A DNA stretch of 37,638 nt, taken from the sequence record DRR723986_21240. One strand, given 5' to 3'. Position 1 is the first letter of the stretch, and each line of letters opens with the position of its first letter. The notes beneath the pieces were generated by a model. The model had not been told where the DNA came from. It saw nothing but the letters and a program-made list of their open reading frames with translations, and searched no databases. Of this stretch, positions 4,601-28,770 are shown piece after piece. The position numbers were made by a program, and so were the translations under genes.

Positions 4601-7600
4601 ACCATCACAAATAGTTGTATCAGGATCTGATATGGCGACATCAATAATTGGCAACGGATTCACTACTAATGTAAATGCGTTTGAAGGTGCCGAGCATCCA
4701 GTGTTATAGCCTTCAACATATATATTCAGAGTCCCAACAAAAGAATTAGAAGTTAATATATTGGTTGGAGAAGGTGGCCCTTGAGAAACGCCATCAATGA
4801 AAAACTCATAATTATTTGCTCCAGAAGCCGTATAAGTTATTGTCTCACCCTCACAAATAATGTTATTGACATCAGAGCTTGACAAGGCAGTTGGTGGAAT
4901 TGGATCTACAGTAATTGTAAATGAACTGATACTTGTATTAGAACAACCACCTGAATAGCCAATTAAATCTATAACATCTCCTGAGTTTAACCCATCACTA
5001 AATAAAGTGTCCACAGCCGTAACTCCTTGAGAGATTGAATTAATTAGAAACTCATAAGTCGTACCACCAGTTGCCGTAAAAGTAATTGAGTCTCCATCAC
5101 AAATAATGTTATTCGCATCTGAACTCGTCATGTCAATTGTCGGAACAACATTCACATTAATTGTAATCGTGTCATTGGCGAAATAGGTACATCCATTTTT
5201 AGTTCCACTTAAAGAAACTTGAGGAGAACCAACTGGTAAATTTGAAACCGGAAAAGTTCCAGTTCCGTTAATTGTATGTGAAGCTCCATCAACAAAAAGT
5301 TCATAGCTTGTAATACCAGTACCTGTCCCAGTAAAGTTAATGGTTTCTCCAAAACAAATAGCGTTATCAGGATCAGAATCAAATAAATTCACATTGAATT
5401 GAGGGATGACTGTCATTGGATATTCTGTTGCACTGAAATCGTTACATCCACCTGCAATAAAACCTCTCACTTTTACTACATCCCCATTCGCAAGATTAGG
5501 GAAAACATGAACTGGATTAGTTGTTGCACCTGCTACCGGAACACCGTTTAAATAATATTGATACTGGATTGCTCCTCCGGCTGTAAATGTCACCGTATCT
5601 CCTTGACAAATAGTACTATCCGGATCATCTGCGGTTAAAGTTACTACCGGTAGAGGATTCACTGTAAACGTCTGAACTATTGAAGTCTGCGAACAGTTAT
5701 TTGAGGTTCCAACCACCGAAACTTGATCTCCTGAAACCAAAGCCCCATTCGAATAATTAGGGTTTCCAGAAGGACCTTGAACGTTGGTTCCATTCAGTAA
5801 AAACTCATACGTTGTTGCATTATAACCAGTAAATGAAACTGTGGTTCCCTCGCAAATTGAGGTACCTGTATTATTCAGTAATATCGTATTTGGAATTGCA
5901 TTCACAAAATAGGTAAAACTCTGAGGGGCTGTATTTGGACAAGCAAGTGTATATCCAACGACAGTCACATTATCCAAGTTATTCAAGGTAGTAGTATTAT
6001 AAACATTTGCTCCTCCTGGTCCTTGAACCGAGACACCGTTAACAAAAAACTCGTAGTTAGTGGCATTTGAAGCTGTGAATGAAACCGCATCTCCAGCACA
6101 TATTACTTGATCTGCATCCGAAGTTACCATTGTAGGATTAGGAAGCGGATTCACCGTCATGGTGTAGGTTTCTGGTGCTTGATATGAGCAAGTCGTACTT
6201 GTATCTACTCCCATTGCAGTAACTGTTTGACCATTTACCAACGTAGATGTCGTATAAACATTAGTTGTAGTTAATTGAGAAACCGGGGTTCCGTCAATAA
6301 AAAACTGATACTTTTCTGCCCCTGTGGCAGTAAAGGTCACTGCATCCCCATCACATATAATGTCATCTGCATCAGATGAAGAGAGACTCGTGCCCGGTAA
6401 GTTATCTACTGTAAATGTATAGACGTTAGCTGAAGTATCTGGGCAACCATTGGCATTAATAATACAGGTAACGATATCTCCATTGTTTAGTCCGGTAGTA
6501 GCATAAATTGGAGATGGTGAATTTTGGACAGACCCATTATTCACTTGAAAATCATAAGTTACCGTTCCTCCTCCCGCATAGGTTGAACCATTGAAACTAA
6601 CTAAATCACCATCACAAATTGTAGTATCACTAGCACTCGTTATAACAATTAAATTAGGATCGTTAATTCTGACAGAATCAAGTAAAGTATCTGAACAAAA
6701 GTTGGTGTAAGTTGAAGTCAAGTAAACATAATGCACACCATCATTGACATACGTATATGTTGGATGAACCATTGATGATGTGTCACCACTTAACGTATCA
6801 TCTCCAAAATCCCATTCAAAGGTTAGAGCGCCTATTCCACCAGCATAGGCCGTTGATGTATTGGTAAAAGTAACAGGGTCTCCAAAACAATAATCATACG
6901 GAACAGTAAAATTGGCCGTAGTGGGCAAAGTCGGATCAAATGTCCAACCACCATTATTTCCATAATCACTACTAAAATAAGCAGTTAGAGGTGTAGTATT
7001 CGTAATATTGATTCCTGTTGGATTTGTACATTCTGCCTGTCCAGGGTTTGCCAAATTAAAAGTCGTTGCATTGATGAGTGACGAAGATTCAATAAAAATA
7101 CTATCTAAACAGGTCCCAATTGCCGTAAAATTCCCTGTAATTGTTTGAGTTTCATTAGAGTCAACTAATACTCCAAGGCCGGCATTAAAAACTAAATCGT
7201 TAAAAGTATTGCTACCACTGAACAAAGTATACGGTTGAGTAGACCCGGAGTAAATAATTAAATCGTTAAAAGTTTGATCATCTCCAAAAAAGTAGTCGAT
7301 TCCAGTACTCCCTAGAACGGTGATTTCTGAATTGCCAGGTACAACATTAAGCATATTCGATAACAACGAATAATCATTAAAAATAGCTCCGTACCTCAAT
7401 TGAAGCACACTATTATTCAACAGGACTGTTTTGGATTGATCTCCTGTAGTGATAAATTCACCAGCAAAAATGGTGTCTGAGTTCGTATCAAATGTTCCCG
7501 CACCAAAATTCAACGTAGATGGATCGTCCATTCTTAAATTCCCGTTCAGGTTAATCGTATCCGTTGCCAAAAACCCTGTAGCGAAAACATTCGCATGAAC

Positions 7601-9880
7601 AGGTCTATCAAAAGTTACAAACTCAGAATTATTAATGTGAGGGATAAAACGAATTTGAGCAATCGAATCGGTATTGGAGATGCTCATTGTATTATTTAAT
7701 ATCAGATCCTCTCTTATATTGACACTGCTTTCCAGGTTAAATATTGGAGAGTTTATTTCCGAACCGGTCCAGTCCATCCTGTAACAGTAACCCATTAAAT
7801 CAACGTTGACTGTTTGACCAGCTGCTGAAAACGATCCTCCATTAAATCGAACTGTATCTCTAATTGTCGGAAGACATGTCGCGGGCACAGTTAAAGGAGA
7901 TTCCCAATGAGATAAATCAGACCAGTCTCCAGAACCACCAACCCAGTAAAAATCTGCGCCACCGGGAGCTGTTGTTGTATCCCAACCTGTTGTCACAAAA
8001 CCTAGTATGGAGTTTTGAGCCAGGTTATAATGTAAAAGTGAATTGTCTGCCGTTACATTGAAAATATTACAGTAATCTACAATCAATGTATCGAATAAAC
8101 CAGTTTTGGTAATATTTGCTGGTGGGCTAGTGTTATTCGAGGACTGAAAAGTAATAGGTAATGCACAATTTCCAATTGCAATTAAAGAGTCTATTTGCTG
8201 ATCTGTGTCATTTTCTAAGGTTAATGTAATCCCTGGTTGCAGTTCTACTAGGTTAAAAAAGTTATCGTTTAATATTTCACTATGCGGATTATAAAATCTT
8301 ACGGCATTATATTGTTGACCTCCACATTGCAAACTCGATAAAGCAGAATTTGTGTGATTGACGTGGACTTCTGAATTTAAAGAAGTAAAGGTCAAGCTAG
8401 TTGGTTCCAAACTCCAAACCATACCTGTTTCAGTCAACGTAATTTGAGATGATGATATATCCAAATTTCTGACAGAAACTTCATCTGATAAAAGACCACC
8501 TATTGTCATATCATTCAGATTTGAAGTAAAGGATCCCGAGTCCAAATGAACGAATGCAGTAGATAGCAAATCATCCGTTAATGACCATGAACCGGTATTC
8601 CTGTTAAATCGGATATCCCCGTTTAAGGTTACTCCATTTGTTGTGATTGTTTCTGCGCCTACAGAGGCGAACTCTATCTCACCTGTATAGCTAGAGGTCA
8701 TCCCAGCGTCAAGAACCATAGAGCCCCTTAAAGTTAGTGGCACAGACCCTGCTAGATCTGGCGTGCCTAAAACCCCAGTCCAGGTCATGTTATTACAATA
8801 AGCATGTAAATCAACTGTTGTAATGAATCCAGAACCCGAAGCGTTGTCGAAAAACACATTATCATTCGGTCCTGGGATACATAAATCTGGAGCAGCCCCA
8901 GAAGCCGTTGCCCAATGATTCGGATCGTTCCAATTTCCTGTCCCTCCTACCCAGTAATAATCAATATTTGAGGGGTTTTCATTTACGGTCCAGCCCGAAT
9001 TATTACCTTGATCAATAGAATTTGTTGCCGAATATGTCCCGTTGGTTCCATTTATTGAAGAGAGTACAAGACCCGTTGCATTAACGACTTGCCCTTGCAA
9101 ATCAATGTATGCCTGATTACCAGTTGAAGAACTCAGGTATATTTTATTCCCACAATCTCCAGGTAACGTCAGTTTATAACAGTCTAGATTCGAACCTGGA
9201 CCATCTGCCAATAAAATGTTTGAGCCTGCGACAAAGTTAATTGTGTCAACCTTGGTTTGTCCAATCGTTTGAAAATTAGCCGTATTAACATTAATTTCAG
9301 CGTATTGAACGTTGGCTCCTCCTGCTGTAAAGTTCACGAAATTAGCCCCTGGATAGTTGAAATTAAAAACAGCATTCGTAAAATCCTCAATAAGATTGAA
9401 AGAATTCACAGCCATTGCCGTTCCATCACCTGTTATATTAATAGTACTATTCGCAAAGTTCATGGTACGATTACCAAAAAAGCTCGCAAATGCCAAATCA
9501 ATATTGTAGGCTGTCAGGGTATTTCCATTCAAATGAACTTGTCCGTATGTTACATCAAACAAACCTGAGCAAGTCCAATTATTATTTGCATATATAACAC
9601 CTGCAGCGTTCAATAAATTCGCGTTATTACATAAAGCAGCTATATCAAGAAATACGGTGTCTCCAACATTAAATGAAAAACCATCAAAATAAACATCATC
9701 AGCTAAACTCGGAATAGATGTATGAAATGTTCCACCGTTTGAAGTCGTGGCCCAGTGATTCGAAAAATCTGACCAATTACCTGTTCCTCCTACCCAGTAA
9801 TAATCCGCCGCATAACTTTTCCCTCCTTGAAAAAAGAGCAATAATAAGATTAATTTCAACGTAGTGTAAGTCAGTTTCAT
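1676..9880 (-). CDS. Giant T9SS type A cargo (2734 aa): 3 YWVGG repeats, PKD domain, 14 Ig-like repeats, RCC1 propeller, CTD; putative adhesin
   Basis: Signal peptide MKLTYTTLKLILLLLFFQGGKSYA. Start 9880 is preferred because a consensus promoter lies at 9930-9960. PKD motif FEWDFGD; RCC1 motif WGxNxxGQLG x7; CTD VYPNPSNG...YSMLGQ...RGSYMLYI...KIVLH. Confidence 0.9.
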   Translation of the reverse strand: MKLTYTTLKLILLLLFFQGGKSYAADYYWVGGTGNWSDFSNHWATTSNGGTFHTSIPSLADDVYFDGFSFNVGDTVFLDIAALCNNANLLNAAGVIYANNNWTCSGLFDVTYGQVHLNGNTLTAYNIDLAFASFFGNRTMNFANSTINITGDGTAMAVNSFNLIEDFTNAVFNFNYPGANFVNFTAGGANVQYAEINVNTANFQTIGQTKVDTINFVAGSNILLADGPGSNLDCYKLTLPGDCGNKIYLSSSTGNQAYIDLQGQVVNATGLVLSSINGTNGTYSATNSIDQGNNSGWTVNENPSNIDYYWVGGTGNWNDPNHWATASGAAPDLCIPGPNDNVFFDNASGSGFITTVDLHAYCNNMTWTGVLGTPDLAGSVPLTLRGSMVLDAGMTSSYTGEIEFASVGAETITTNGVTLNGDIRFNRNTGSWSLTDDLLSTAFVHLDSGSFTSNLNDMTIGGLLSDEVSVRNLDISSSQITLTETGMVWSLEPTSLTFTSLNSEVHVNHTNSALSSLQCGGQQYNAVRFYNPHSEILNDNFFNLVELQPGITLTLENDTDQQIDSLIAIGNCALPITFQSSNNTSPPANITKTGLFDTLIVDYCNIFNVTADNSLLHYNLAQNSILGFVTTGWDTTTAPGGADFYWVGGSGDWSDLSHWESPLTVPATCLPTIRDTVRFNGGSFSAAGQTVNVDLMGYCYRMDWTGSEINSPIFNLESSVNIREDLILNNTMSISNTDSIAQIRFIPHINNSEFVTFDRPVHANVFATGFLATDTINLNGNLRMDDPSTLNFGAGTFDTNSDTIFAGEFITTGDQSKTVLLNNSVLQLRYGAIFNDYSLLSNMLNVVPGNSEITVLGSTGIDYFFGDDQTFNDLIIYSGSTQPYTLFSGSNTFNDLVFNAGLGVLVDSNETQTITGNFTAIGTCLDSIFIESSSLINATTFNLANPGQAECTNPTGINITNTTPLTAYFSSDYGNNGGWTFDPTLPTTANFTVPYDYCFGDPVTFTNTSTAYAGGIGALTFEWDFGDDTLSGDTSSMVHPTYTYVNDGVHYVYLTSTYTNFCSDTLLDSVRINDPNLIVITSASDTTICDGDLVSFNGSTYAGGGTVTYDFQVNNGSVQNSPSPIYATTGLNNGDIVTCIINANGCPDTSANVYTFTVDNLPGTSLSSSDADDIICDGDAVTFTATGAEKYQFFIDGTPVSQLTTTNVYTTSTLVNGQTVTAMGVDTSTTCSYQAPETYTMTVNPLPNPTMVTSDADQVICAGDAVSFTASNATNYEFFVNGVSVQGPGGANVYNTTTLNNLDNVTVVGYTLACPNTAPQSFTYFVNAIPNTILLNNTGTSICEGTTVSFTGYNATTYEFLLNGTNVQGPSGNPNYSNGALVSGDQVSVVGTSNNCSQTSIVQTFTVNPLPVVTLTADDPDSTICQGDTVTFTAGGAIQYQYYLNGVPVAGATTNPVHVFPNLANGDVVKVRGFIAGGCNDFSATEYPMTVIPQFNVNLFDSDPDNAICFGETINFTGTGTGITSYELFVDGASHTINGTGTFPVSNLPVGSPQVSLSGTKNGCTYFANDTITINVNVVPTIDMTSSDANNIICDGDSITFTATGGTTYEFLINSISQGVTAVDTLFSDGLNSGDVIDLIGYSGGCSNTSISSFTITVDPIPPTALSSSDVNNIICEGETITYTASGANNYEFFIDGVSQGPPSPTNILTSNSFVGTLNIYVEGYNTGCSAPSNAFTLVVNPLPIIDVAISDPDTTICDGESITITGTGSGTYEFMINGVSQGPPTSNSTFNTNSLVDGDQITIQGVGVNGCFNTSSDLYTFTVIPNPVVSMISSEPDSSICIGDTVTFNASGASVYQYYVNGNLASTGPTYVTDSLTNGQIVQVYGSDNICAAYGNSIPYSVYSYPVTSIISDDIDQTICQGDQVVFTGLGAFDFEFFVNGTSVQGPTTQDSLITTTINNGDVITVEGGNQGCISNSNALTFTVNQYPNTTLTSSVPSNQICFGDQVDFTAGSAIQYEFFINGISQDPASTQNLFSSDELNNGDVITVLGYDGDCAALSATVITMGVDVMPIELTALPGNIICVGDQVDFTGVGADTYEFFVDGNSVQGPSATNTYSTTTLTNGQVVSLQGFLASTGCLQYAPTSQLFVVMDNPVISALSSTTICEGDSVVLESSYQTWNQWYWDGSALAGENDIYYQAYDAGTYHVEVTLGGVDEVWGLGSNAEGQLGDNTTINSLTAIEAVGLLNIVELEAGKEFVLARDNSGALYAWGENSEGQLGDGSFTSTLTAINTSITNAIDVAAGHEFSAAVLSTGAVMTWGNNDFGQLGQGNFSTTNFPFAVAGLSNMVMVSTGENHMLALRDDGTVFSWGDNSFGQLGDGTLTTSNVPIQVPGLSGIASVHTGDNHSFAVDSSGQLLVWGSNAHGQLGVNGILFSQTPILNTIPNVKAADGGTDHSIVLTTSQKVYTFGNNDFGQLGNGTVISEYNPQKMDTLDAVVHIEAAFYQTAIIKGDNSTWTWGRNDDGQLGTNSIIQQNAPVYIANLTGAADFGLGENHTSYIVTQENSCSSNTIDVIVNPAPDVTITSFGGLFTATPPGDSYQWYIDGIIIPGGTSQSIAPTTFGWYTCEVTYPGGCTSLSDPYPWGVVGLEEDVFAFTVYPNPSNGLVNIKGDFSRFDQVEIEVYSMLGQRLSLQQLDNLNQNIFVDLEDYARGSYMLYIKSDGVIIGKRKIVLH
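2150..6661 (-). repeat. Array of 14 Ig-like ~80-85 aa repeats (14th interrupted by RCC1 propeller)
   Basis: Consensus P...SSD...ICxG(D/E)xVxFTA...YEFFxNGxSxQGP...L.NGD.(V/I)...GC...TVN, counted 14 times. Confidence 0.85.
2192..3238 (-). repeat. Seven RCC1-like repeats (~50 aa each; predicted 7-blade beta-propeller)
   Basis: Seven units matching (W/F/L)GxNxxGQLG...G(xx)H, counted in the translation. Confidence 0.9.
6935..9808 (-). repeat. Three long (~280-340 aa) N-terminal repeats starting D(Y/F)YWVGG(T/S)G(N/D)W(S/N)D..HW
   Basis: The motif recurs at ~9805, ~8962 and ~7954. Each unit has P...DxVxF, a central Cys and ends near GW. Confidence 0.8.
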
Positions 9881-9929
9881 TCTAACAAATTGAGAATAGA
9901 AAATATCCCGTAGGATTCTCAAATTCAAA

Positions 9930-9960
9930 CAAATATAAGACACTCAATATTGCTTTCAAA
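9930..9960 (-). promoter_or_regulatory. Bacteroidota primary-sigma promoter for the giant T9SS gene
   Basis: The minus strand reads TTTG (9960-9957), 19 nt, TATATTTG (9937-9930): an exact -33/-7 consensus at canonical spacing. Confidence 0.8.
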
Positions 9961-10186: not shown

Positions 10187-10708
10187 ATGAAAAACTTACT
10201 ACTTCTTCTTTTTTTATCATTTTTTGCCAACTTGGGTTCGGCTCAAGTTACGGTTGAAAATGATCCAAGTCTTGATTTTCAGAAGGATTTGGCTGAGAGA
10301 ACTCATTTTGAAAAAATTAATTTTTCTTTACAGAGCCCTCTACATTTTATTGTTCCTGACACTGGTTTTATTGGATTTATTCATTCAGGGGCAGGTGGTT
10401 CTATCGCTATAGTTGAAGTACCTTATCGTTCAGCATCTAATGTCGCGGACGAATTCGCAAATAAAGATTTTACGGCGTCAAATTCAAAACTAATATCGAA
10501 CGAAAAAATAGTACTGAATTCGGGAGTTGAAGGCACTTTGTATAAAGTTCACTTTGCAATACAAGATCAACTTGTCGAACGATTGGTTATGATAATAGGA
10601 ACGGATAAAAAAACATACATGGTTTTTGCTAATTATCCTGCAATGATATCACCAGTTCTAAACCCTGTCATAATTGCTTCTTTTAAAACTGCTTTGTTTG
10701 AAGAGTAA
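10187..10708 (+). CDS. Exported hypothetical protein (possible PsbP/DcrB-like alpha/beta fold)
   Basis: Signal peptide MKNLLLLLFLSFFANLGSA|Q, no CTD. The fold guess comes only from the strand/helix pattern. Confidence 0.75.
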   Translation: MKNLLLLLFLSFFANLGSAQVTVENDPSLDFQKDLAERTHFEKINFSLQSPLHFIVPDTGFIGFIHSGAGGSIAIVEVPYRSASNVADEFANKDFTASNSKLISNEKIVLNSGVEGTLYKVHFAIQDQLVERLVMIIGTDKKTYMVFANYPAMISPVLNPVIIASFKTALFEE

Positions 10709-13700
10709 AATCATCATATCGCTATTATTGGTTTTAAGTCAAGGTATTTCGCATGCCCAAACTACAACCATGAGTGACAACGTGATGTTCTCTACTTCAC
10801 AACAGAGCATTTGGGGACCCGGCAATGCCTATGTTTCAGATATTGATGTGCCATTGTTCAACGTGCCTTGGAATACCAGTTTCGGGCCAGTTGGTGGAAT
10901 CACCAATGTTGGCTATGGTTTTGGAAGCTGGGGTGGACAAATTTCAGCAGGCACCTGGGGTAATATTGGCGCGAGATTCTATATGAAGGGGATTACAGCA
11001 GGATATGTAGATGTGGATTACCCCATTCAAGCTGACATTACGTACCCAAGTGCAAACACGATTGACAGAGGAACCTGGGTCACCGTCAATACGGATTACA
11101 ATGTCACAAATGGCTGGGCTTTAAACTCTTCACCGCCATCAATGGGTGAGACAGCTCTGGAAATGACCACTAATTTGAACGCTTATATTCATCCGACTGT
11201 TTGTATTGGATACTGTACTTCGCCTAATGTTGATGTAAATGTCAATGAGACATTCCCTATTTTTAAAATAAATCAATATGAGGCTATATACCCTGGGGTA
11301 ACGGGCTCTTATACAGGCTCCTGTCCACCTCCTGGCTTTGGGTATTGTACTAGTCCTACCCCTACTGGTGCATACACTCTTCCTGCTTGGATAAAACAAT
11401 CTGGCTTCCCGGTAATGATGCCAAATAATGGTTTAGGGATTTCAGGTTTTCTTGATTTACCTACGACTCAAACAAATGATTATATATACGGAAACTGCCT
11501 AGGAGCCTTCGGAAGTAAACATTATGTGCAAGTAGGCGTTGATTTGATTAAATTCATGGGGAATTTTATTCCAGGCCCGGTCGGTGTTGTAATGAAAAAC
11601 TTATCGAATTCATATAATATCGGACCAGTGAATTTCACCTATAATCTCTTTTCTTCGACACTGCAATTGAATTTGCATAACCAGCATCAATTTAATTTCT
11701 GCCCTAATGTTGAGGGCACTTTCAACTTTCCGGTTCCTATGAATTTTGAAGAAGTTGATCCAATTTCCGGGGCTATTCTTGAAACCGGTTTCTCTCAATC
11801 TGCTACGGTTGATTTAGGAAACGATTTACGCGTAGAATACCCTTGTAATTATGAATTTGCGGATGTAGATATGAATTATAATATTAAAAATGAGGACAAT
11901 TTTACGAGTCATATCTATGATTCCTTGGCCCTCGATTTTATTATCGAAGCACTTCAATTCGATCTTTCATTAAACAGTTTTCAATTGTTCCCTGGGATAT
12001 GGATATCTCCTGTTTGCGCATCCGTTCCTTACCCTTGCGGAACCTGGAGTAAACCATGGAAAATTTGCTGGAAAACAGTTTGCGTGCCACCTGTTGGCTT
12101 TTGGCTAATTCCACCAATTAATATTCCAGGATTCTCGATTGGAACAGGTGGACCGTTAATTAGTATCCCGTTCTCTCTGGCTAATTTTAAGTATGATTGG
12201 TATCAAGGAACTTATCCGCTAGGTGGATTTACTGCTCAAAATGGCGGCACGTTCACTTTGGATGCCATGGAATACTCTGCGAGTGCAACCGGATTGGATG
12301 TAGATTGTAAAGGTGATGCGACTGGCGAAATGACGGCAACTGTCGTCAACGGCGTTGCCCCATTCACTTTTACATGGCCTGATGGAACGATTACGAATTC
12401 TGCCACTCAGTCATCTACCAATTCAAATTTGTTGGCAGGTTATAATTATGTCACAATAGAAGATGCTAATAATTGTCAAGTTGTTACGGACATCTTCTTA
12501 AACGAACCTTCTCAAAACCTTGAGATATATAACTCCACTTCAACGGATGTTGATTGTTTCGGAAATTCAAATGGGCAAATCACAATTAGTGTAACTGGAG
12601 GAACTCCTCCTTATAGCTATGTTTGGACAGGAAGCGGAAGTACAACCAACTCAGCCACAAACCTAGGCCCTGGAACATATAATGTTACCGTTACTGACGC
12701 TAAAAACTGTACAACAACTGGTTCTTATACAATTACCGAACCTACCGCAGTAGCAGCGGTAGTTCAAGTTAACAATGATGTTTCGTGTTTTGGAGGAAAT
12801 GATGGCTCAGCCACGGTGACAGGCTCAGGAGGAACTTATCCATATACTTATTTATGGTCAACTGGTGGCCTAAGTTCTACTGAAAATGGACTTGCTGCTG
12901 GACCTCATTCGATAGATCTAACTGATGCTAAAGGATGTCAAACTACAGTCAACTACAGCATTACTGAACCTGCAGCACCTTTAGCATTAAGCATTACTTC
13001 ACAGCCTGTGCTCTGTAAAAACGGCTCAGACGGTTCTATTGATTTAACAGTTGCAGGCGGAACAGCACCATATACGTTCAAATGGTTTAATCAAAATTAT
13101 GTCCAGCTGAGTGCCACCACTGAAGATTTAAATGGCTTGAGTTCTCAAACTTATATTGCCGAAGTAACTGATAGTAAAGGTTGTTTGGATACGATTTCTG
13201 TTCTTGTTGGAGAACCGGTTGCCGAATTAACGTCATCTTTAGTTTCTCAAATCAATGTTTCTTGTTTCGCAGGCTCTGACGGGGCCATTGATGCTCAGGT
13301 TACAGGAGGAACACTGCCTTATGCATACAACTGGTCCAACGGTGGGGTAACAGAAGATATCACTGGAATTCCGGCGGGCAACTATATTTTAGATATTTTA
13401 GATGCAAATAATTGTACTAGTCAACTAATTATTGATATCACGGAGCCAAATGCTCCACTTGCTTCTTCTTTGACATTTGAAGATGTGTTATGTAATGGTG
13501 ATGCTTCTGGTTCTATTGACCTCACTGTATCTGGCGGAACAGCACCATATACTTATGCTTGGAACAACAGTGCAACCACAGAAGATATCAGTGGGCTAAT
13601 TGCTGGACCATACAACGTTGTAATTACGGATGCCAAAGGTTGCAACACAAATAATAATGCCACCATTAGTGAACCTACCGCACTTACTATAAACCAATCT

Positions 13701-15356
13701 TCAGTGGACGTGCTCTGTTTTGGTGGAAATGATGGAAGTTTAGCCGTTACAGTTAATGGTGGGGTTACTCCTTATGATTATTCATGGTCTGATGGAGCAA
13801 ACAATCAATTGAGCAACAGCACTAACGCCATGTCAAACTTGTATGCAGATACTTACAGTGTAATTGTCACGGATTCGAATGCATGTACAATATCAACTTC
13901 AATAACTATTGATGAACCTACTGCTCCAATTAGTTTAACTGAAGTAACTACGAATGTGCTATGTAGAGGTGACAACACTGGTGAAATTGATGTCACAATT
14001 ACGGGGGGTACAAGCCCTTACACTTATGTTTGGTCAAATGGTGCGACAACTGAAGATATTTCAAATTTATTTGCCGGAGACTATACATTAACTGTTACAG
14101 ATGCAAACGGCTGCATAGATAGCATTTCAGCAACAGTAACCCAACCCGCCTCAATAGTACAAATTGTTGTGGATAAAAAAGATGTACTCTGTAAGGGAGA
14201 CAATACCGGATGGGCATATGCAACAGTTTCTGGAGGAATTGGTCCTTATTTAATTAACTGGAGCAATGGAGACATTACAAACTTAACTGATACATTGATG
14301 GCTGGTACATATACCGTACAAGCAATTGATGCAAATGGATGCGTTGCTAATTCAGGAACCGTTATTAACGAACCGTTAACTCATGTAACCTTCTCTGCAA
14401 CATCAATTGACGCAAGTTGTTACGGCAGTAATGATGGATCAATTACTGTCACTCCTATGGATGGGGTTATGCCATACACCGTAATATTTGGAGACACATC
14501 CATCAACTTATTCAATAATAACTTAAACAGTTATACTATTGAGAATCTACATAAGGGAACTTATCCTGTTCAGGTCGAAGATGGCAACGGCTGTAGATAT
14601 TTAGACAGCATATTTGTAGATCAACCAGATTCGTTGACGGTTATTGGAACACCTATTGACGCGTTGTGTTTTGGATCGAGTGATGGTGCTATTTCTACAA
14701 TAATACAAGGAGGAACCACTCCGTACACAACAATTTGGTCGAACGCAACTGTTAATCAACAATTAGTTGGAGTGCCAGCAGGCTGGTACACTGTTAATAT
14801 TATAGACTTCCATGGTTGCACAATTCAAGGAACTTGGAGAGTTGAACAACCAGACGAAATATTAATTTCACCTTCTGTCACTGATCCAACATGTAGAGAT
14901 AACGAAGACGGTTCTATTACTATATTTACAGAAGGAGGAATTCCTGGTTATGATTATCTATGGTCAAACTCGGAAATTACGAGTGACATTTTCAACTTAG
15001 CACCGGGACAATATGTTTTGATTGTCACTGACCAAAATGGCTGTGAAAAATACGATACCTTGAACATCAATTTAACCGACATTGATTGTATAGCTCCACC
15101 TAACGCTTTTACTCCAGATGGAGATGGTTATAATGACACATGGATACTTGACAATCTTGATAATTATCCTGAAGCAGAAGTAACGATTTTCAATAAATGG
15201 GGGAACATAGTCTATCAAACAAACGGTACTTATACTCCTTGGGATGGAAGCTTCGAGGGTAAAATATTACCAGCTGCAACTTATTATTACGTGATTAAAT
15301 TAAACAATGGTACCGCACCTTATTCGGGAGCAGTTACCCTGGTTATTCATAAATGA
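10698..15356 (+). CDS. SprB-repeat protein with ~500-aa uncharacterised N-terminal head and gliding-motility-associated (type B) CTD
   Basis: TTG 10698 gives signal peptide MKSKIIISLLLVLSQGISHA|Q and overlaps the upstream stop. 12 SprB repeats (VxC.G...GGTxPYxYxW...DANGC). CTD PNAFTPDGDGYNDTW...IFNKWGNIV...WDG...TYYYVI...GAVTL. Confidence 0.9.
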   Translation: MKSKIIISLLLVLSQGISHAQTTTMSDNVMFSTSQQSIWGPGNAYVSDIDVPLFNVPWNTSFGPVGGITNVGYGFGSWGGQISAGTWGNIGARFYMKGITAGYVDVDYPIQADITYPSANTIDRGTWVTVNTDYNVTNGWALNSSPPSMGETALEMTTNLNAYIHPTVCIGYCTSPNVDVNVNETFPIFKINQYEAIYPGVTGSYTGSCPPPGFGYCTSPTPTGAYTLPAWIKQSGFPVMMPNNGLGISGFLDLPTTQTNDYIYGNCLGAFGSKHYVQVGVDLIKFMGNFIPGPVGVVMKNLSNSYNIGPVNFTYNLFSSTLQLNLHNQHQFNFCPNVEGTFNFPVPMNFEEVDPISGAILETGFSQSATVDLGNDLRVEYPCNYEFADVDMNYNIKNEDNFTSHIYDSLALDFIIEALQFDLSLNSFQLFPGIWISPVCASVPYPCGTWSKPWKICWKTVCVPPVGFWLIPPINIPGFSIGTGGPLISIPFSLANFKYDWYQGTYPLGGFTAQNGGTFTLDAMEYSASATGLDVDCKGDATGEMTATVVNGVAPFTFTWPDGTITNSATQSSTNSNLLAGYNYVTIEDANNCQVVTDIFLNEPSQNLEIYNSTSTDVDCFGNSNGQITISVTGGTPPYSYVWTGSGSTTNSATNLGPGTYNVTVTDAKNCTTTGSYTITEPTAVAAVVQVNNDVSCFGGNDGSATVTGSGGTYPYTYLWSTGGLSSTENGLAAGPHSIDLTDAKGCQTTVNYSITEPAAPLALSITSQPVLCKNGSDGSIDLTVAGGTAPYTFKWFNQNYVQLSATTEDLNGLSSQTYIAEVTDSKGCLDTISVLVGEPVAELTSSLVSQINVSCFAGSDGAIDAQVTGGTLPYAYNWSNGGVTEDITGIPAGNYILDILDANNCTSQLIIDITEPNAPLASSLTFEDVLCNGDASGSIDLTVSGGTAPYTYAWNNSATTEDISGLIAGPYNVVITDAKGCNTNNNATISEPTALTINQSSVDVLCFGGNDGSLAVTVNGGVTPYDYSWSDGANNQLSNSTNAMSNLYADTYSVIVTDSNACTISTSITIDEPTAPISLTEVTTNVLCRGDNTGEIDVTITGGTSPYTYVWSNGATTEDISNLFAGDYTLTVTDANGCIDSISATVTQPASIVQIVVDKKDVLCKGDNTGWAYATVSGGIGPYLINWSNGDITNLTDTLMAGTYTVQAIDANGCVANSGTVINEPLTHVTFSATSIDASCYGSNDGSITVTPMDGVMPYTVIFGDTSINLFNNNLNSYTIENLHKGTYPVQVEDGNGCRYLDSIFVDQPDSLTVIGTPIDALCFGSSDGAISTIIQGGTTPYTTIWSNATVNQQLVGVPAGWYTVNIIDFHGCTIQGTWRVEQPDEILISPSVTDPTCRDNEDGSITIFTEGGIPGYDYLWSNSEITSDIFNLAPGQYVLIVTDQNGCEKYDTLNINLTDIDCIAPPNAFTPDGDGYNDTWILDNLDNYPEAEVTIFNKWGNIVYQTNGTYTPWDGSFEGKILPAATYYYVIKLNNGTAPYSGAVTLVIHK
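12267..15089 (+). repeat. 12 SprB-type repeats (75-83 aa)
   Basis: First Cys codons at 12306, 12555, 12786, 13014, 13263, 13491, 13716, 13962, 14190, 14418, 14667 and 14892. Confidence 0.9.
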
Positions 15357-18300
15357 GATTGAAAATCAAACATACCCTACTCCTATTCTTATTTTTTGCC
15401 TTTGTGTCGATAGGGAAAGCTTGTCCTAATGTGACCTTATCTGCAACTAACGTTACTTGTTTCGGAGGCTTTGATGGTACAGTTGATATTCAGGTTACAG
15501 GACCCAACGGTCCGTTTAACATTTCATGGAGTCAAGGATCATCAAGCGGAACATTTAATAATGTCCCATCAGGAACGGTCTCTCAACAAGGCGGACTCCC
15601 GGCTGGAGTATTTTCGGTTTATGTTGTAGATCAATTAGGGTGTACTTCCACTAAAACCATCACTGTTTATCAAGCATCAGAATTAACAGGGAACATCACA
15701 GCTATAGATGTTGACTGTAAAGGTGATGCCTCTGGAATTGCAGACTTGACACCGTCTGGAGGAACACCTCCTTACTTTTTCAATTGGTCAAACGGTGCAA
15801 CAAGTGAAGATTTAATTAATGTAATAGCAGGGAATTATTCAGTTATAATTTCAGATATCAATGGATGCAGCATGACTACAGCTTTGCCTACCACAATTAA
15901 TGAACCAGCTCAGGCCGTTCAATCATCAATTGTGGTGAGCAATGTAAGTTGTGAATTCGGGACAGATGGTAACGTTGATTTATCAGTTTTTGGTGGAACA
16001 CCACCTTATACTTTTGACTGGAATGGTGGCACCTACTTAACAGAAGATTTAACCAATATACCGGCCAACACTTACACCGTGCTTGTACAAGATTCAAAAG
16101 GTTGTGTTGAGACAAATTCTGCTGTAGTAACAGAACCCTTAATGTTGAATGCCTCAATGGTTGGATTTAATGTCCTTTGTAATGGAGATGCCACAGGATC
16201 TATTAATTTGACGCCTCAAGATGGTACACCGCCCTATTCATTTACTTGGACAAATAGCTCATTTACTTTAGGAAATACGGAAGATCTATCTGGACTGGTA
16301 GCCGATACTTATACTGTGACCATTACAGATGCTAACGGCTGCACAGCAAACGGATCCTACACGGTTACTGAACCGTCACAAATAACTGCGACCTTTGCTT
16401 CGGTTGATGTGAGTTGCTTTGGTTTTTCGGACGGTTCAATAAATATGACCACAACTGGTGGCTCTGGGGCAAATGTTTATACATGGAAAAACTCTGGAGG
16501 TTCTATTGTTGGTACAACTGAGGACCTAAATAATATTCCGGCAGAGACCTATACAATAACAATTGAAGACGCTAACAACTGTATCCACACTGATGATGTT
16601 GTGATTAGCCAACCGTTAACTCCTGTTACAGTGAGTTACACCAAAGTTGATGTGTTATGTAACGGTGACAATACCGGAGCAATCGACCTAACTGTGACAG
16701 GAGGAAGTCCAGGTTATGTATATTCCTGGTCAAACACGGCTATTAGTCAAGATTTAACAAATTTATTTGCAACCACCTATTCTGTTGTAGTTACAGATGT
16801 GCAGGGCTGCACAGAAACCGTTGTAATCCCAATTATTGAGCCATTGCAGCCTTTAAATGCAACTTATTTAGTTCAAGATGTTCAATGTTTTGGAGACAGC
16901 ACCGGGGTAATCGATATGACAACAACAGGTGGAACAACACCGTATGATTTTTCATGGGAAAACTCAGTTTTCGCCTTAAGTGTTTCATCTGAAGATATTA
17001 TTAATTATGGTGCTGACACATATTACGTAACAGTTACGGATAACCACAACTGCGTTTTTGAGGACACCATTATTATCAATCAACCTCCAGAAATGATTTC
17101 CTCAATAGTGAAAACAGATGTACTTTGTTATGGAGAAGCTACAGGTATTGCAGATTTAACTGTTACCGGTGGTGTGCAGCCTTATGCTTATAATTGGTCG
17201 AATTTATCCATCCTTCAAGATCAAAACAATGTTGTTGCGGGACAATATAACGTAACTATTAATGATGCAAATAATTGTATTTTATTGGATAGTGTAGAAA
17301 TTGATCAACCTTTAGATACTTTAAATAGTACCCACAACATTGTTGAACCTACTTGTCCTGGCTATACGGATGGTCAGATTTTTTACGTAGCTGATGGAGG
17401 CACTCCGCCATATTCTTATTTCTGGTCTAATGGCCAATTTAACCCCAATGCCTTCAACTTAAGTTCCGGTGCCTATTTTATGACATTAACTGATGCTAAT
17501 GGATGCGTTCGAGTTGATTCTATTTTCCTAACTCAACCAGATTTCGTAACGATTAATTCGGTAATTGAAGATGTTAAGTGTTTTGGAGGAAATGACGGAA
17601 GCATTGACATCACGCCAATAGGAGGAAGCCCTCCATTTACATATGATTGGACTAATTCAACTTACGAATTAAGCACCGCAGATGAAGATTTATTCGGATA
17701 CACAACAGACATTTATACGGTTACTGTGACTGACGTAAACAACTGTGATTTTACGCAATCTTTTATTATTAATGAGCCACCTTTATTAGAGGTGAGTTAC
17801 GTTACTCAAAATATTTCATGTGCGGGTGCTTCTGACGGCGGAATTGACCTAACCATTACAGGAGGTACTCCAACTTACAGTGTACTCTGGGACAACGGGG
17901 CGACCACAGAAGATTTAATTGATCTCGGCTCAGGAACTTACGTCTATTCTATAAAAGACTTCAACGCTTGCAATGTAACAGATACCATTGATTTATTTGA
18001 ACCTACACCTATAACTTTTAACGCTGTTGTCACTGCTGTAACCTGTAGAGATCAAACAGATGGGACCATTGAAATATTTGCTGAAGGCGGATATGGAGAT
18101 TTCACTTACAGCTGGTCTCACGGTACCACTGCAAATCCCGTAACGAATTTACCTGGAACCGATTACACTGTGACCATTACTGATTTGGTTGGTTGTAGCG
18201 CTGACACTACGATTACCGTTCCGGTTACTGACATTCAATGTTTAGAAGTTCCCACCGCCTTTACCCCTAATTTTGATGGATATAATGACGACTGGCAAAT

Positions 18301-18505
18301 CACGAACATTTACTTATACCCTGAATGTTCTGTAGTAGTGATGAATGAGTGGGGAAAAATTGTATATCAAATTGATGGTGGGTATAACGAACCTTTTGAT
18401 GGTACATTCAGAGACAGAGATCTTCCTGCCTCAACCTACTATTATATTATTGATTTGAAAAATGACATTAAGCCCTATACTGGTGCTGTAACAATTGTGA
18501 GATGA
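15353..18505 (+). CDS. Headless SprB-repeat protein with type B CTD
   Basis: ATGA overlap with the upstream stop. The signal peptide leads directly into 12 SprB repeats. CTD VPTAFTPNFDGYNDDW...NEWGKIV...STYYYII...GAVTIVR. Confidence 0.92.
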   Translation: MRLKIKHTLLLFLFFAFVSIGKACPNVTLSATNVTCFGGFDGTVDIQVTGPNGPFNISWSQGSSSGTFNNVPSGTVSQQGGLPAGVFSVYVVDQLGCTSTKTITVYQASELTGNITAIDVDCKGDASGIADLTPSGGTPPYFFNWSNGATSEDLINVIAGNYSVIISDINGCSMTTALPTTINEPAQAVQSSIVVSNVSCEFGTDGNVDLSVFGGTPPYTFDWNGGTYLTEDLTNIPANTYTVLVQDSKGCVETNSAVVTEPLMLNASMVGFNVLCNGDATGSINLTPQDGTPPYSFTWTNSSFTLGNTEDLSGLVADTYTVTITDANGCTANGSYTVTEPSQITATFASVDVSCFGFSDGSINMTTTGGSGANVYTWKNSGGSIVGTTEDLNNIPAETYTITIEDANNCIHTDDVVISQPLTPVTVSYTKVDVLCNGDNTGAIDLTVTGGSPGYVYSWSNTAISQDLTNLFATTYSVVVTDVQGCTETVVIPIIEPLQPLNATYLVQDVQCFGDSTGVIDMTTTGGTTPYDFSWENSVFALSVSSEDIINYGADTYYVTVTDNHNCVFEDTIIINQPPEMISSIVKTDVLCYGEATGIADLTVTGGVQPYAYNWSNLSILQDQNNVVAGQYNVTINDANNCILLDSVEIDQPLDTLNSTHNIVEPTCPGYTDGQIFYVADGGTPPYSYFWSNGQFNPNAFNLSSGAYFMTLTDANGCVRVDSIFLTQPDFVTINSVIEDVKCFGGNDGSIDITPIGGSPPFTYDWTNSTYELSTADEDLFGYTTDIYTVTVTDVNNCDFTQSFIINEPPLLEVSYVTQNISCAGASDGGIDLTITGGTPTYSVLWDNGATTEDLIDLGSGTYVYSIKDFNACNVTDTIDLFEPTPITFNAVVTAVTCRDQTDGTIEIFAEGGYGDFTYSWSHGTTANPVTNLPGTDYTVTITDLVGCSADTTITVPVTDIQCLEVPTAFTPNFDGYNDDWQITNIYLYPECSVVVMNEWGKIVYQIDGGYNEPFDGTFRDRDLPASTYYYIIDLKNDIKPYTGAVTIVR
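15422..18241 (+). repeat. 12 SprB-type repeats (75-86 aa)
   Basis: First Cys codons at 15458, 15716, 15950, 16178, 16415, 16658, 16886, 17126, 17354, 17579, 17819 and 18044. Confidence 0.9.
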
Positions 18506-19476
18506 TGATTTTGAAGAGAATATTATTAGTACTTTTAATTAGTTTGGCATTTGGAGCAAAGTCACAACAAGTGGGACTTAACTCTCAATATATGTTCAAT
18601 ACGTTCTTGCTAAATCCAGCTGTGGCTGGGAGTAAGGAATATATACCAATTCACGCAAGTGTTAGAAAACAATGGGTTGGCATTGCTGAAGGCCCTGTAT
18701 CCCAATCAGTAACGGCTCATGGTTATAATGGATTCAATTTTGGAATTGGTGGAGGTATTTTTAATGAAACTACCGGACCAACTAGAAGAACTGGATTAAA
18801 TTTCAGTACAGCCTATCATTTAGTGCTTAAAGGAAGCAGCAGTAGAACTCAACAAATGACCATGTCATTCGGATTAGGAGGAACCATTACGCAGCATGTT
18901 TTAGATAAAAACGCATTAACTACCTATTTACCTGATGATCCAACAATCATTTCTGCCTATAACTCAACCTTAATTCCAGATTTAAACTTTGGGTTTTTAT
19001 TGCATAAAGGAAATAAATGGGAAGTAGGTATGTCAGCTATGAGTTTGGTTCAAACCAATGTAGATATATATAATTTGGGGAATGAAGTGAGAAACCGATT
19101 GGTGAGAAATTATTTTGTCCATGGGTCATATACTATTGATGCTGGATCTGATTTCAAAATTCAACCTTCTCTCGTCTTTAGAATGATTGAAGCCCTACCA
19201 ATGCAATTTGATATCAATAGTAGATTTATTTATCAAGAAAAATATTGGGCAGGAATCAGCTATCGTCATAATGATGCAATTTCTGCAATGATTGGTCTAA
19301 ATATTTACAGACTTCGATTTGGCTATTCATATGATTTCACATTATCAGATATGAGAAATTATAGCGCTGGATCACATGAAATTGCATTTACCTATTTCAT
19401 ACATGGTGAAGGAAAAGGATTTCAATCTAATAAGAGCCAATCTCGAACTAGATACAGACCTACCCCATCATTTTAA
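18502..19476 (+). CDS. PorP/SprF family T9SS outer-membrane protein
   Basis: Motifs SQYMFN..LLNPAVAG, RKQWVGI..GP, WAGISYR and GYSYD...AGSHEI. Lies directly after the type B cargo genes with an ATGA overlap. Confidence 0.93.
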   Translation: MMILKRILLVLLISLAFGAKSQQVGLNSQYMFNTFLLNPAVAGSKEYIPIHASVRKQWVGIAEGPVSQSVTAHGYNGFNFGIGGGIFNETTGPTRRTGLNFSTAYHLVLKGSSSRTQQMTMSFGLGGTITQHVLDKNALTTYLPDDPTIISAYNSTLIPDLNFGFLLHKGNKWEVGMSAMSLVQTNVDIYNLGNEVRNRLVRNYFVHGSYTIDAGSDFKIQPSLVFRMIEALPMQFDINSRFIYQEKYWAGISYRHNDAISAMIGLNIYRLRFGYSYDFTLSDMRNYSAGSHEIAFTYFIHGEGKGFQSNKSQSRTRYRPTPSF

Positions 19477-24300: not shown

Positions 24301-25398
24301 GTGAAGAAATTATTACTAACCCTTGCTATTTCTTTAACAGGGATCATGTCGTTTGCACAGCCAGATGACGAATTAACTCCTGAAGAAAAAGCTTATCGCG
24401 ATTCAATCGCAAATCTAAATGAAACCAACGCGGCAATTGAGAAATCACAAAACGCCTATAATGCCGGTATCGAACTTTTCAAACAAGAAAAATACGAAGG
24501 TGCCATCAACAAATTTTCAGAATCAATAGCAGCTGACCCGAATTTTACACCTGCTTATTACAACAAGGCAATTGCCGAAAATAAGTCAGAGAAATATGGA
24601 CAAGCCATCAAAACATTGGATGCTTTGATTGCGAAAAAGCCAGATTACTCGAAGGCATATTTTCAAAGAGGTAGAGCCTATCAAGGTAAGAAGGACTTCT
24701 TGAGCGCTGAAAAAGATTATGAAAAGTCTGTTGCTCTGGACCCTAAAAACCCTAAAGCCTATTATAATTTTGGTACGCTTCAATTCTTACAAAAAGATTA
24801 CGAGAGCGCGATTATACAGTTCAGTAAAGTAATTGAATTGGACCCGAATAATGCCTATGCATATAACGATAGGGGCTCTTGCTATCGGATGTTAGAAAAA
24901 TATCCTCAAGCAGTTAAGGATTATGAAGAAGCGGCTAGAAAAAATGCGAATTTGGCCTTTGTTTTAAATAATATTGGAACGACTAAAACAAAAATGAAAT
25001 CTTATGAAGATGCATTGAAAGACTTTAACAGAGCGCTATCTATAGATGCTAAATTCTATTTAGCCTATAACAATAGAGGCGTTACCGAAATGAAAATGGA
25101 CAGATATACGGATGCCATTAAAGATTTCACTAAGTGTATAGAAATCAACGCAAATTACGCACCAGCCTATAGTAACCGAGCAGGAGCATATTTTAAAAAT
25201 GGAGAATATGCTAAAGCGAAAGCAGATGCTGACAAAGCGATTTCTCTTGACAAAAATTTTGCTGATGCCTATGTAAATAGAGGAATGGCGAAAGAAATGC
25301 TAAGAGACTTAGAAGGTGCTTGCGAGGACTGGCACAAGGCCAAAGAACTTGGTTCAGAATTAGGAAAAAGCTACAAGGCTTCAAATTGTTCAAATTAA
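24301..25398 (+). CDS. Exported tetratricopeptide repeat protein
   Basis: Signal peptide; about 8-9 34-aa repeats AYxNRG...Y..A..D...AI.LDP; C-terminal ACEDWHKAKELG. Confidence 0.93.
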   Translation: MKKLLLTLAISLTGIMSFAQPDDELTPEEKAYRDSIANLNETNAAIEKSQNAYNAGIELFKQEKYEGAINKFSESIAADPNFTPAYYNKAIAENKSEKYGQAIKTLDALIAKKPDYSKAYFQRGRAYQGKKDFLSAEKDYEKSVALDPKNPKAYYNFGTLQFLQKDYESAIIQFSKVIELDPNNAYAYNDRGSCYRMLEKYPQAVKDYEEAARKNANLAFVLNNIGTTKTKMKSYEDALKDFNRALSIDAKFYLAYNNRGVTEMKMDRYTDAIKDFTKCIEINANYAPAYSNRAGAYFKNGEYAKAKADADKAISLDKNFADAYVNRGMAKEMLRDLEGACEDWHKAKELGSELGKSYKASNCSN

Positions 25399-25423
25399 TA
25401 ACGGTAAATCAAAATAAAACAAG

Positions 25424-27496: not shown

Positions 27497-27514
27497 TACT
27501 TTCGAACTAAATTT

Positions 27515-27550
27515 AAAGCCCGATTCTGATTCAGTTTCGGGCTTTTTTTT
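27515..27550 (+). terminator. Intrinsic terminator after OmpA/PD40 gene
   Basis: AAAGCCCGA...TCGGGCTTT stem followed by a T-run. Confidence 0.85.
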
Positions 27551-27554
27551 GATT

Positions 27555-27562
27555 TAATTTTG
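27555..27562 (+). promoter_or_regulatory. Candidate -7 element (TAATTTTG) for second OmpA gene
   Basis: TAnnTTTG match just after the terminator, 14 nt before ATG 27577. Confidence 0.4.
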
Positions 27563-27576
27563 TACTTTCAAAGCGC

Positions 27577-28770
27577 ATGAAATGGATAAGTATCTTGGTT
27601 TTTCTGTTGAGTTTTGCCTCTTCTGCTCAGGACTTGGTTGGCAAATGGATTGGCGTCACCACTCAAGAACCTAACCGCGAATTCTATTTTGAAATCAACG
27701 TTTTACATGATGGTGGAAATCAATATCATGGAACAACAGTTATCAAAGAAGAACAATCGGGAAATTACGGTGTTATCAAATACACTGCTACTTTTGAAAA
27801 CAATCTTTTCACTTTTAAAGAGTCAGCCATTACTCATGAGGATAAATCTAAAGAAGATGGTTACTGGAAATCAAACAATTTTAACTGGTGCATTAAAGAA
27901 GGTCAGCTTAAACTAACAGAAACTAAAAATGAACTAGTTCTAAACGGCCCTTGGACTTCTTCTACAGGAACTTGCAAGCCCGGTGGAATAAAAGTCAGCA
28001 AGAACATTGAATCGCATGAATCGAACAATGAATTAGATGATTGTCTCGGTTCACCCAATTCAGCCGATTTTCTTTACGGAATGTGGAGCGGTGTTTTTAA
28101 TCAATACTCATGTAATATCGACAACTCGTATAAAATGTTTTTGTTGATTGATGAAATTGACGGATTAAAATTCAGTGGAGCATTTATTTGGCCTTCAAAT
28201 GGCTATCATACCGACAGCAGATCAACACTTGAAGGAGAAATAAAAAATGGAAAAATCTATCTCTACGAAGACAATATTATTTCTGGCAGTGGATTGGTAC
28301 TTAACGGAATTTATGAGGCTAAGATCATTAGTTGTGATGAAATAGCAGGAATTTGGTATCTGAGAAAGTATCAATCTGGAGGATGCAACCAACCTCATGT
28401 CTTAAAGGATGGCGGTAATTTTAATTTGGATCATTATAAGATTCCTACGGTATATTTTGATCATGAATCAAAAGAATTGAGTAAAAAGTCGGTTCAAGAC
28501 CTAACTGACTTTGCAGATTTTATGAAAAAGTTCAACAACCTCAAAATTGAATTAGACGGTCATACAGACAATACTGGAAGCAATGCATTTAACCTAATTT
28601 TATCTAATGAACGATCTATAGTTGTGAGAGATTTTCTGATTTCTAAAGGAATTTCAAGTTCAAGAATTAGCATCAAACACTTTGCTCAAACCAAACCAGC
28701 TGAATCAAACGATACGGATAAAGGGAGAGCTTTGAATAGGCGAACTGAAATTGTTGTGATTAAGAAGTAA
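27577..28770 (+). CDS. OmpA-family protein with two N-terminal beta-rich domains
   Basis: Signal peptide; C-terminal VYFD...IELDGHTD...LSNERS...NRRTEI. Confidence 0.88.
   Translation: MKWISILVFLLSFASSAQDLVGKWIGVTTQEPNREFYFEINVLHDGGNQYHGTTVIKEEQSGNYGVIKYTATFENNLFTFKESAITHEDKSKEDGYWKSNNFNWCIKEGQLKLTETKNELVLNGPWTSSTGTCKPGGIKVSKNIESHESNNELDDCLGSPNSADFLYGMWSGVFNQYSCNIDNSYKMFLLIDEIDGLKFSGAFIWPSNGYHTDSRSTLEGEIKNGKIYLYEDNIISGSGLVLNGIYEAKIISCDEIAGIWYLRKYQSGGCNQPHVLKDGGNFNLDHYKIPTVYFDHESKELSKKSVQDLTDFADFMKKFNNLKIELDGHTDNTGSNAFNLILSNERSIVVRDFLISKGISSSRISIKHFAQTKPAESNDTDKGRALNRRTEIVVIKK

Follow-up and report, generated by a model that had tools for sequence, protein, structure and literature searches.

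Why should two adjacent genes encode repeat-built stalks of exactly equal length, when one of the proteins carries a head and the other has none? The question is raised by a stretch of 37,638 nt from sequence record DRR723986_21240 (hereafter the window), which comes from a marine Bacteroidota bacterium of the Crocinitomicaceae, Flavobacteriales. Here two neighbouring genes, termed A and B, each encode a putative type IX secretion system (T9SS) cargo with 12 SprB repeats, and are followed by a gene for a PorP/SprF-family outer-membrane protein. Across related loci, the exact match in residues proved incidental and the repeat number did not: at every locus where the two genes were observed undamaged, heads included, A and B had equal numbers of three-repeat units, or triads. 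That the repeat number is equal in related bacteria even when it has changed suggests that A and B build one appendage. The locus comprises the following features:

10674..15356, + strand: gene A, 1560 aa, in which a signal peptide is followed by the head, 12 SprB repeats and a T9SS sorting domain of type B (from the open reading frame, its translation, 12 matches to PF13573, and matches to PF13585 and TIGR04131).
10764..12290, + strand: head of A, residues ~31-539, all-beta in its predicted model, with long hairpins and without known family.
12306..15086, + strand: stalk of A, whose 12 units begin at nt 12306, 12555, 12786, 13014, 13263, 13491, 13716, 13962, 14190, 14418, 14667 and 14892 (from cysteine (Cys) positions and a repeat hidden Markov model (HMM)).
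15087..15353, + strand: linker Cys and type B sorting domain of A (Pfam and NCBIfam matches, Cys position).
15353..18505, + strand: gene B, 1050 aa, headless, in which 12 SprB repeats follow the signal peptide and precede a type B sorting domain; its ATG overlaps the TGA of A (ATGA).
15458..18238, + strand: stalk of B, whose 12 units begin at nt 15458, 15716, 15950, 16178, 16415, 16658, 16886, 17126, 17354, 17579, 17819 and 18044 (from Cys positions and the repeat HMM).
18239..18502, + strand: linker Cys and type B sorting domain of B (Pfam and NCBIfam matches, Cys position).
18502..19476, + strand: gene for the PorP/SprF-family outer-membrane protein (PF11751 E 2e-69, TIGR03519 E 2e-73); its ATG overlaps the TGA of B.

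The three genes are co-directional and both junctions overlap as ATGA; two type B cargoes and one shuttle gene form a translationally coupled operon. Pfam recognised 12 stretches of SprB repeat (PF13573) in each of A (E 7e-121) and B (E 2e-114), together with one CHU_C domain per protein, and PF13585 scored 79.5 bits in A and 65.6 bits in B. The type B sorting domain was recognised by TIGR04131 at 74 bits in A and 60.9 bits in B (cut-off 35), and the PorP/SprF-like protein by TIGR03519 at 247 bits (cut-off 90.55). Both leaders are hydrophobic, by eye in the translations, and of the Sec signal-peptide kind. Whereas A carries a head of ~510 residues, the first repeat of B begins 12 residues past a conserved N-terminal Cys. 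Two stalk genes and a PorP/SprF-family gene were found in every complete orthologous locus, and the PorP/SprF-family protein is the presumed shuttle and anchor for the sorting domains of A and B.

An initial annotation of the window had described A and B as adjacent SprB-like stalks of 12 repeats each, one headed and one headless, with identical spans from the first-repeat Cys to the linker Cys, and had interpreted them as old paralogues held at equal repeat number because they run side by side, the headless chain acting as strut or ruler. Every sequence item it listed is present. The span is 927 residues in both proteins, running from residue 545 (nt 12306) to 1472 (nt 15087) in A and from 36 (nt 15458) to 963 (nt 18239) in B, and is divided into units of 83, 77, 76, 83, 76, 75, 82, 76, 76, 83, 75 and 65 residues in A and of 86, 78, 76, 79, 81, 76, 80, 76, 75, 80, 75 and 65 in B. 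The units are, as it had said, well diverged, and the last repeats match best, unit 12 of A being closest to unit 12 of B.

Orthologues were sought with a profile of the head in 401 genomes each of the window's family, order and class, and 51 stretches from the family were annotated with HMMs derived from the repeats, sorting domains, head and PorP-like protein of the window itself. The head protein occurred in 59 of the 401 family genomes, representing 13 of 29 genera. All 49 complete family pairs, the window included, had 12 units in A and 12 units in B, followed by the PorP-like gene; this count leaves out L015 (on the same contig as L079), L089 (B cut by the contig end), L005 (cut by the contig end) and L078, in which A counts 11 units to the 12 of B. 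The spans proved less uniform, and the initial caution that equality to the residue could be partly chance was well placed: they were equal in only 4 of the 49 pairs, three of which belong to the window's genus. The difference between A and B was at most one residue in 8 of the 49 pairs and at most three in 27, with a range of -9 to +26 and a standard deviation of 7.8, and the two spans were correlated across pairs (Pearson 0.76). On these figures, 927 = 927 is a chance match inside a narrow band, and it is this band, together with the fixed count, that carries the real signal. Length varied in the distal units 1-3, the most variable ones in both chains, and in one clade also in units 4-6 and 8-9, while units 10-12 were nearly fixed and units 7-9 were fixed outside that clade (units 7-12: 82, 76, 76, 81, 75 and 65 residues in A; 80, 76, 75, 80, 75 and 65 in B).

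Beyond the family, the module was found in eight genomes of four further families of the order, with six loci of 12/12 and a PorP-like gene, and in a second order, with two 12/12 loci and five matches (5 of 78 genomes) in frames of 1545-1560 aa. Across at least six families in two orders, the two genes keep the same number of triads. A scan of metagenomes with a five-row head alignment yielded 22 loci: eight complete 12/12 loci, one in which A is split by a stop codon (7 + 5 units) with B intact at 12, eight cut by contig ends, four with short head proteins (two SprB repeats and PKD domains) and no B, and one of 6/6 (L135). At the DNA level, the tally stood at 65 loci of 12/12, one of 9/9, one of 6/6 and one of 11/12; several of these loci are near-duplicates between collections, and relatives are not independent.

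A wider range of counts was recovered from a protein collection, in which 12 units were found in 76 head-bearing proteins and 48 headless ones with a sorting domain, 15 units in 6 and 16, 9 units in 6 and 4, and 21 units in 1 and 5, respectively, with 14, 16, 17, 18 or 19 units in a further ten headless proteins in all. The collection also holds a PKD-containing head-bearing group with 7 or 10 units. Five headed and five headless 15-unit proteins lie on contigs of identical size (15533, 89004, 51690, 49096 and 266785), from which we infer that the 15/15 pairs are adjacent on one contig; identical contig sizes also pair five 12/12 and one further 9/9. No 15-unit locus was found in DNA in the order of G930 (matches in 5 of 78 genomes) or in that of G784 (1 of 8). 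A 21/21 pair was considered as well (headed P0210; headless P0010 and others) and is not claimed, as the contig sizes do not match.

The possibility that 12 is merely a standard number of SprB repeats was rejected. Headless SprB proteins in the protein collection range from 9 to 21 and more units, and three related genomes each gave 100-150 or more scored SprB-repeat matches, in open frames of 243 to 4354 aa. In one such stretch (G381:C1:1389251-1393013), SprB repeats fill two adjacent frames, one of 867 and one of 1593 aa and both on one strand, which may represent another pair or one broken gene.

At L107, in a genome that also carries a 12/12 module, A has 9 units (1269 aa), B has 9 units (807 aa) and a PorP-like gene is present; at L135, A and B have 6 units each, with spans of 449 residues in both, followed by the PorP-like gene. 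Trees were built from the last triad and the sorting domain, with 37 and then 58 rows. B chains with 9, 12, 15 and 21 units formed one group (96 and 90 in the Shimodaira-Hasegawa-like approximate likelihood ratio test, SH-aLRT), and all A chains fell outside it, which supports an A/B split predating the diversification of repeat number. The 9-unit A was sister to the 12-unit A of another family (support 97-99), and the 9-unit B to the 12-unit B of that same family (99-100). Joining the 9-unit A with the 9-unit B instead costs 128 log-likelihood units and was rejected by the approximately unbiased (AU) test (p 2e-6). Relative to their 12-unit relatives, the 9-unit A lacks 235 residues and the 9-unit B 231; in both, the gap opens at the end of unit 4 and closes at that of unit 7. 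No single deletion can take an internal piece out of each of two genes, so that two events, alike in size and register, have been fixed. Judging from these phylogenies, the 9/9 counts changed separately in A and B, by one three-repeat unit. The proposal that the two chains are held at equal repeat number thus withstood the comparison of orthologous pairs, in which the counts co-vary as 12/12, 9/9, 6/6 and, by contigs of identical size, 15/15.

At L107 a further head protein (L107:8258-10684) lies directly after the PorP-like gene of the 9/9 module. It has a type B sorting domain and only one triad (three SprB repeats), and the following 9 kb revealed no headless partner for it.

The in-register relationship of the two stalks emerged only with profiles. 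In the single-sequence repeat matrix there was almost no in-register signal, with A-B identity at 38.2% in register and 36.3% out of register. Profiles of each unit position, built from 49 orthologues and compared all-versus-all with hhalign, gave an A-versus-B diagonal that was positive at 11 of 12 positions once row and column effects had been removed, with a mean residual of 15.0 against at most 5.4 for other offsets (permutation p 2e-5; 1e-4 without unit 12). Together with the separate grouping of B chains, this bears out the view of A and B as old paralogues. Within each chain, profile similarity peaked at offset 3 (permutation p 0.065 in A and 0.03 in B), and unit lengths follow a long-short-short pattern, such that the stalk of A consists of four triads of one long and two short units. 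Unit lengths of A chains can be written as (82, 76, 76) xN, ending in (80, 75, 65), for N = 3, 4, 5 and 7. The offset-3 peak and the length pattern point to a stalk that is a string of three-domain triads, and the stalks of A and B are in-register paralogues built of triads of Ig-like SprB repeats. Unit-by-unit conservation showed no significant correlation between A and B (r 0.36, p 0.25). In the headless 21-unit protein P0010 (1750 aa), four successive triads have unit lengths of 79, 81 and 76 residues, as if a single triad had recently been amplified in tandem.

The closest solved relative of the stalks is GhpA, the grappling-hook protein of Aureispira sp. CCB-QB1. A model of units 7-12 and the C-terminal domain of B (predicted local distance difference test, pLDDT, 90.7) is a string of immunoglobulin-like (Ig-like) beta domains. 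Its top Foldseek matches were GhpA fragments (E 5e-16 to 4e-15), and GhpA occupied the top seven rows in VIA (Z 9.1-10.0, 287-492 aligned residues, root-mean-square deviation (rmsd) 7.3-14.1). In sequence, phmmer with B alone found nothing among solved chains, whereas a profile of B matched GhpA at E 2.7e-33 in seven stretches, the best of them aligning the sorting domain with GhpA residues 5801-5896. As described, GhpA (PDB 9flp, 9fls, 9flu, 9flv, 9flw, 9flx, 9fly and 9g8b) is a T9SS substrate of 5898 aa with 52 Ig-like repeats encoded by one gene, and seven of its chains, parallel and in register, make up a stem that is straight, hollow and 240 nm long, in which nearby domains are disulfide-linked (bioRxiv 10.1101/2024.01.29.577165).

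On balance, we lean towards a reading in which A, B and the PorP/SprF-like protein are one conserved T9SS surface module, with A and B co-assembling in register on the PorP-like anchor. A and B would be exported through the T9SS and kept on the cell surface by the PorP-like protein. By analogy with the seven chains of GhpA, their stalks would lie side by side, parallel and in register, in one rigid appendage, and selection would hold the triad numbers equal because of this arrangement. A would provide the head at the tip, and B headless protomers that stiffen the stem and set the number of heads. At ~4 nm per domain, a figure taken from GhpA, a stem of 12 units would measure ~50 nm. A more specific version is plausible, and we put it forward tentatively: a two-component grappling-hook stem, in which headed and headless chains on PorP-like proteins would form a hetero-oligomer, parallel and in register, with a bundle whose structural period is the triad. 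The head number would be set by the headless chain, and length would be tuned in evolution by triads (6, 9, 12, 15 and perhaps 21 domains) through a matching change in both genes. Old paralogy and equal repeat number are thus the parts of the initial interpretation that stand on observation, while its side-by-side arrangement is carried here as a conditional reading with indirect support from the homology to GhpA, and its strut or ruler role for B is a guess.

The main rival to co-assembly is equal reach without contact, in which A and B would be separate stalks, each on its own PorP-like anchor, with heights matched to clear a surface layer or to reach a target plane. Matched counts fit any model in which both lengths matter; moreover, several type B cargoes with no known binding to one another can share a single shuttle (PMC12618676), and SprB is thought not to multimerise (bioRxiv 10.1101/2024.01.29.577165). 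Equal reach nevertheless fits the matched counts less well, because the head heightens A only, so that equal counts mean unequal reach, and because register should not matter for free stalks, whereas the same triad is missing in the same register from both 9-unit chains. The length pattern of units 7-12 is, furthermore, nearly identical in A and B across the family. Overall, we rate this explanation as unlikely.

Far less probable still is an equality without function, inherited from a duplicated 12-unit stalk that gave rise to B and whose diverged repeats rarely change in number. The in-register paralogy signal is what such a history would leave behind, repeats that are ~38% identical should rarely undergo unequal crossing-over, and 12/12 dominates the sample; yet the numbers did change in both genes together, in the 9/9 locus with its separate sisters and AU rejection, in five contig-matched 15/15 pairs and in the 6/6 locus, and no intact locus with unequal triad numbers was seen, nor can a single deletion account for two internally shortened genes. 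Almost equally improbable is a B whose length is irrelevant, either a helper that primes the shuttle or translocon for A or a decoy that absorbs stalk-binding phages or predators. B would suit such a role in being headless and translationally coupled to A and PorP, and the greater length variation of distal units in both chains is also in keeping with it, but neither function explains why triad numbers, or the register of the deletion, should match, and B is at least as conserved as the stalk of A (mean column identity 60% versus 56%).

Several observations weigh against co-assembly in register. Spans are unequal in most pairs, A being up to 26 residues longer than B, and their co-variation is moderate after relatedness is accounted for (independent-contrast r 0.51 on the PorP tree, with signs agreeing in 19 of 32 contrasts). 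Nor do unit lengths follow one pattern throughout: across most of the family, the fifth unit is a long one in B but a short one in A. The tree leaves the 6/6 locus between parallel change and independent duplication (AU p 0.32 and 0.76, with long branches), the 15/15 pairs rest on equal contig sizes and not on DNA seen, and the protein collection contains headless SprB proteins with 14, 16, 17 and 19 units. Counts are unequal at L078 (11/12), where A has suffered one in-frame deletion of 141 residues that removed the end of the head and unit 1, by comparison with a 92.6%-identical relative; this A may be a damaged gene or an assembly fault. Lastly, GhpA is built from one gene, so that a two-gene stem is without solved precedent.

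The head of A comprises ~510 residues, modelled as all-beta with long hairpins (pLDDT 78.4), and matched no Pfam or NCBIfam family. No Foldseek match to the model was obtained at E<=0.001, its best VIA hit was at background level (Z 7.9, rmsd 11.9), with pore-forming proteins on top only through their long hairpins, and there was no usable Atlas match. The same head family was observed on other stalks in L127, L128, L132, L134 and L138, consisting either of two SprB repeats and PKD or of near-identical 81-aa repeats of another kind and PKD. No headless partner was found downstream on the same strand in these five loci, both strands having been scanned only for L138.

The window as a whole is rich in T9SS cargo. 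Upstream of gene A and divergent from it, positions 1676-9943 (- strand) encode a protein of 2755 aa that combines an RCC1-like propeller with a PKD domain and a T9SS sorting domain of type A, and two more type A sorting-domain proteins lie at 594-1625 and 36436-37629, the second with two PKD domains. An open reading frame of 173 aa at 10187-10708 overlaps the start of gene A; it is without family and may not be a gene. A PorE-like gene is found at 25424-27496, 6 kb from the PorP-like gene, encoding 690 aa with tetratricopeptide repeat (TPR), PD40, CarboxypepD_reg and OmpA domains. It belongs to a group at 24301-28770 that also includes a TPR protein and a second OmpA-family protein, and may be the general PorE of the T9SS, not specific to the module.

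The usual view of long repeat-built surface proteins of Bacteroidota, among them SprB, GhpA and hundreds without a name, is that of filaments made of one chain, with repeat numbers free to drift. The co-varying triad number of A and B amounts to a natural experiment, and points to a length-matched, probably two-chain appendage with a three-domain period. With 12 domains versus 52 or more, the module offers a small and tractable T9SS model for the assembly of type B cargo on PorP-like anchors, and co-variation of repeat number between neighbouring genes can serve to identify partners in multi-chain surface structures. None of the module's components is of a new kind: its repeats are SprB repeats, its sorting is type B, its shuttle is PorP-like and its stem GhpA-like. 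No account of a headed and a headless gene whose repeat numbers match and co-vary by three was found in the literature searched, most subscription journals being outside our reach.

Among known systems, the operon resembles static modules such as Fjoh_3952-3951-3950 of Flavobacterium johnsoniae, in which a type B cargo adjoins a PorP/SprF-like shuttle and a PorE-like OmpA protein is part of the operon, as it is here in L010. For a static type B cargo of this species, cargo and shuttle are reported to be needed in stoichiometric amounts. Modules of the Fjoh_3952 type have one cargo per shuttle gene, or orphan cargoes that share a shuttle, and two adjacent cargoes with matched repeats are not described in the available text of that work (PMC12618676).

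The likeness to SprB-SprF of F. johnsoniae lies in the SprB repeats (PF13573), the type B sorting domain and the PorP/SprF-family gene immediately downstream. We know of no second, headless chain in the SprB operon. In the gliding system sprC and sprD lie upstream; the open reading frame upstream of gene A here (10187-10708) matched no family, in an analysis without a search aimed at SprC or SprD. The PorP-like proteins of the module also differ from SprF in their C-tails, which share a basic character and in which none of 51 proteins has a Cys in the last 30 residues; the Cys-X-Cys of SprF is accordingly absent. In gliding, SprB (6497 aa) is propelled on the gliding track, and the Cys-X-Cys in the C-tail of SprF bonds to GldK (PMC12635249). 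Because the PorP-like C-tails lack Cys, static anchoring appears more likely than gliding for the module, in keeping with the static class of type B cargo known from F. johnsoniae. The C-tail (e.g. window 19387-19476) is a conserved basic motif close to TPWLKRNRIYSP outside the window's genus; within that genus it reads SQSRTRYRPTPSF.

The comparison with GhpA is the closest. Unlike GhpA, a homo-heptamer of 52-repeat chains from one gene, the module has two genes with 12 repeats each, one of them headless; its head has no likeness to the GhpA hook that Foldseek or VIA could detect. Downstream of ghpA lie ghpB, which is PorP-like, and ghpC, which is PorE-like (bioRxiv 10.1101/2024.01.29.577165). 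A gene with TPR, PD40 and OmpA domains likewise stands directly after the PorP-like gene in L010, and the open reading frame downstream of PorP in L009 matched no family. With GhpA the module shares its type as a T9SS substrate, a stem whose Ig-like repeats bear disulfides, a sorting domain that is homologous and likewise C-terminal, and a PorP homologue downstream.

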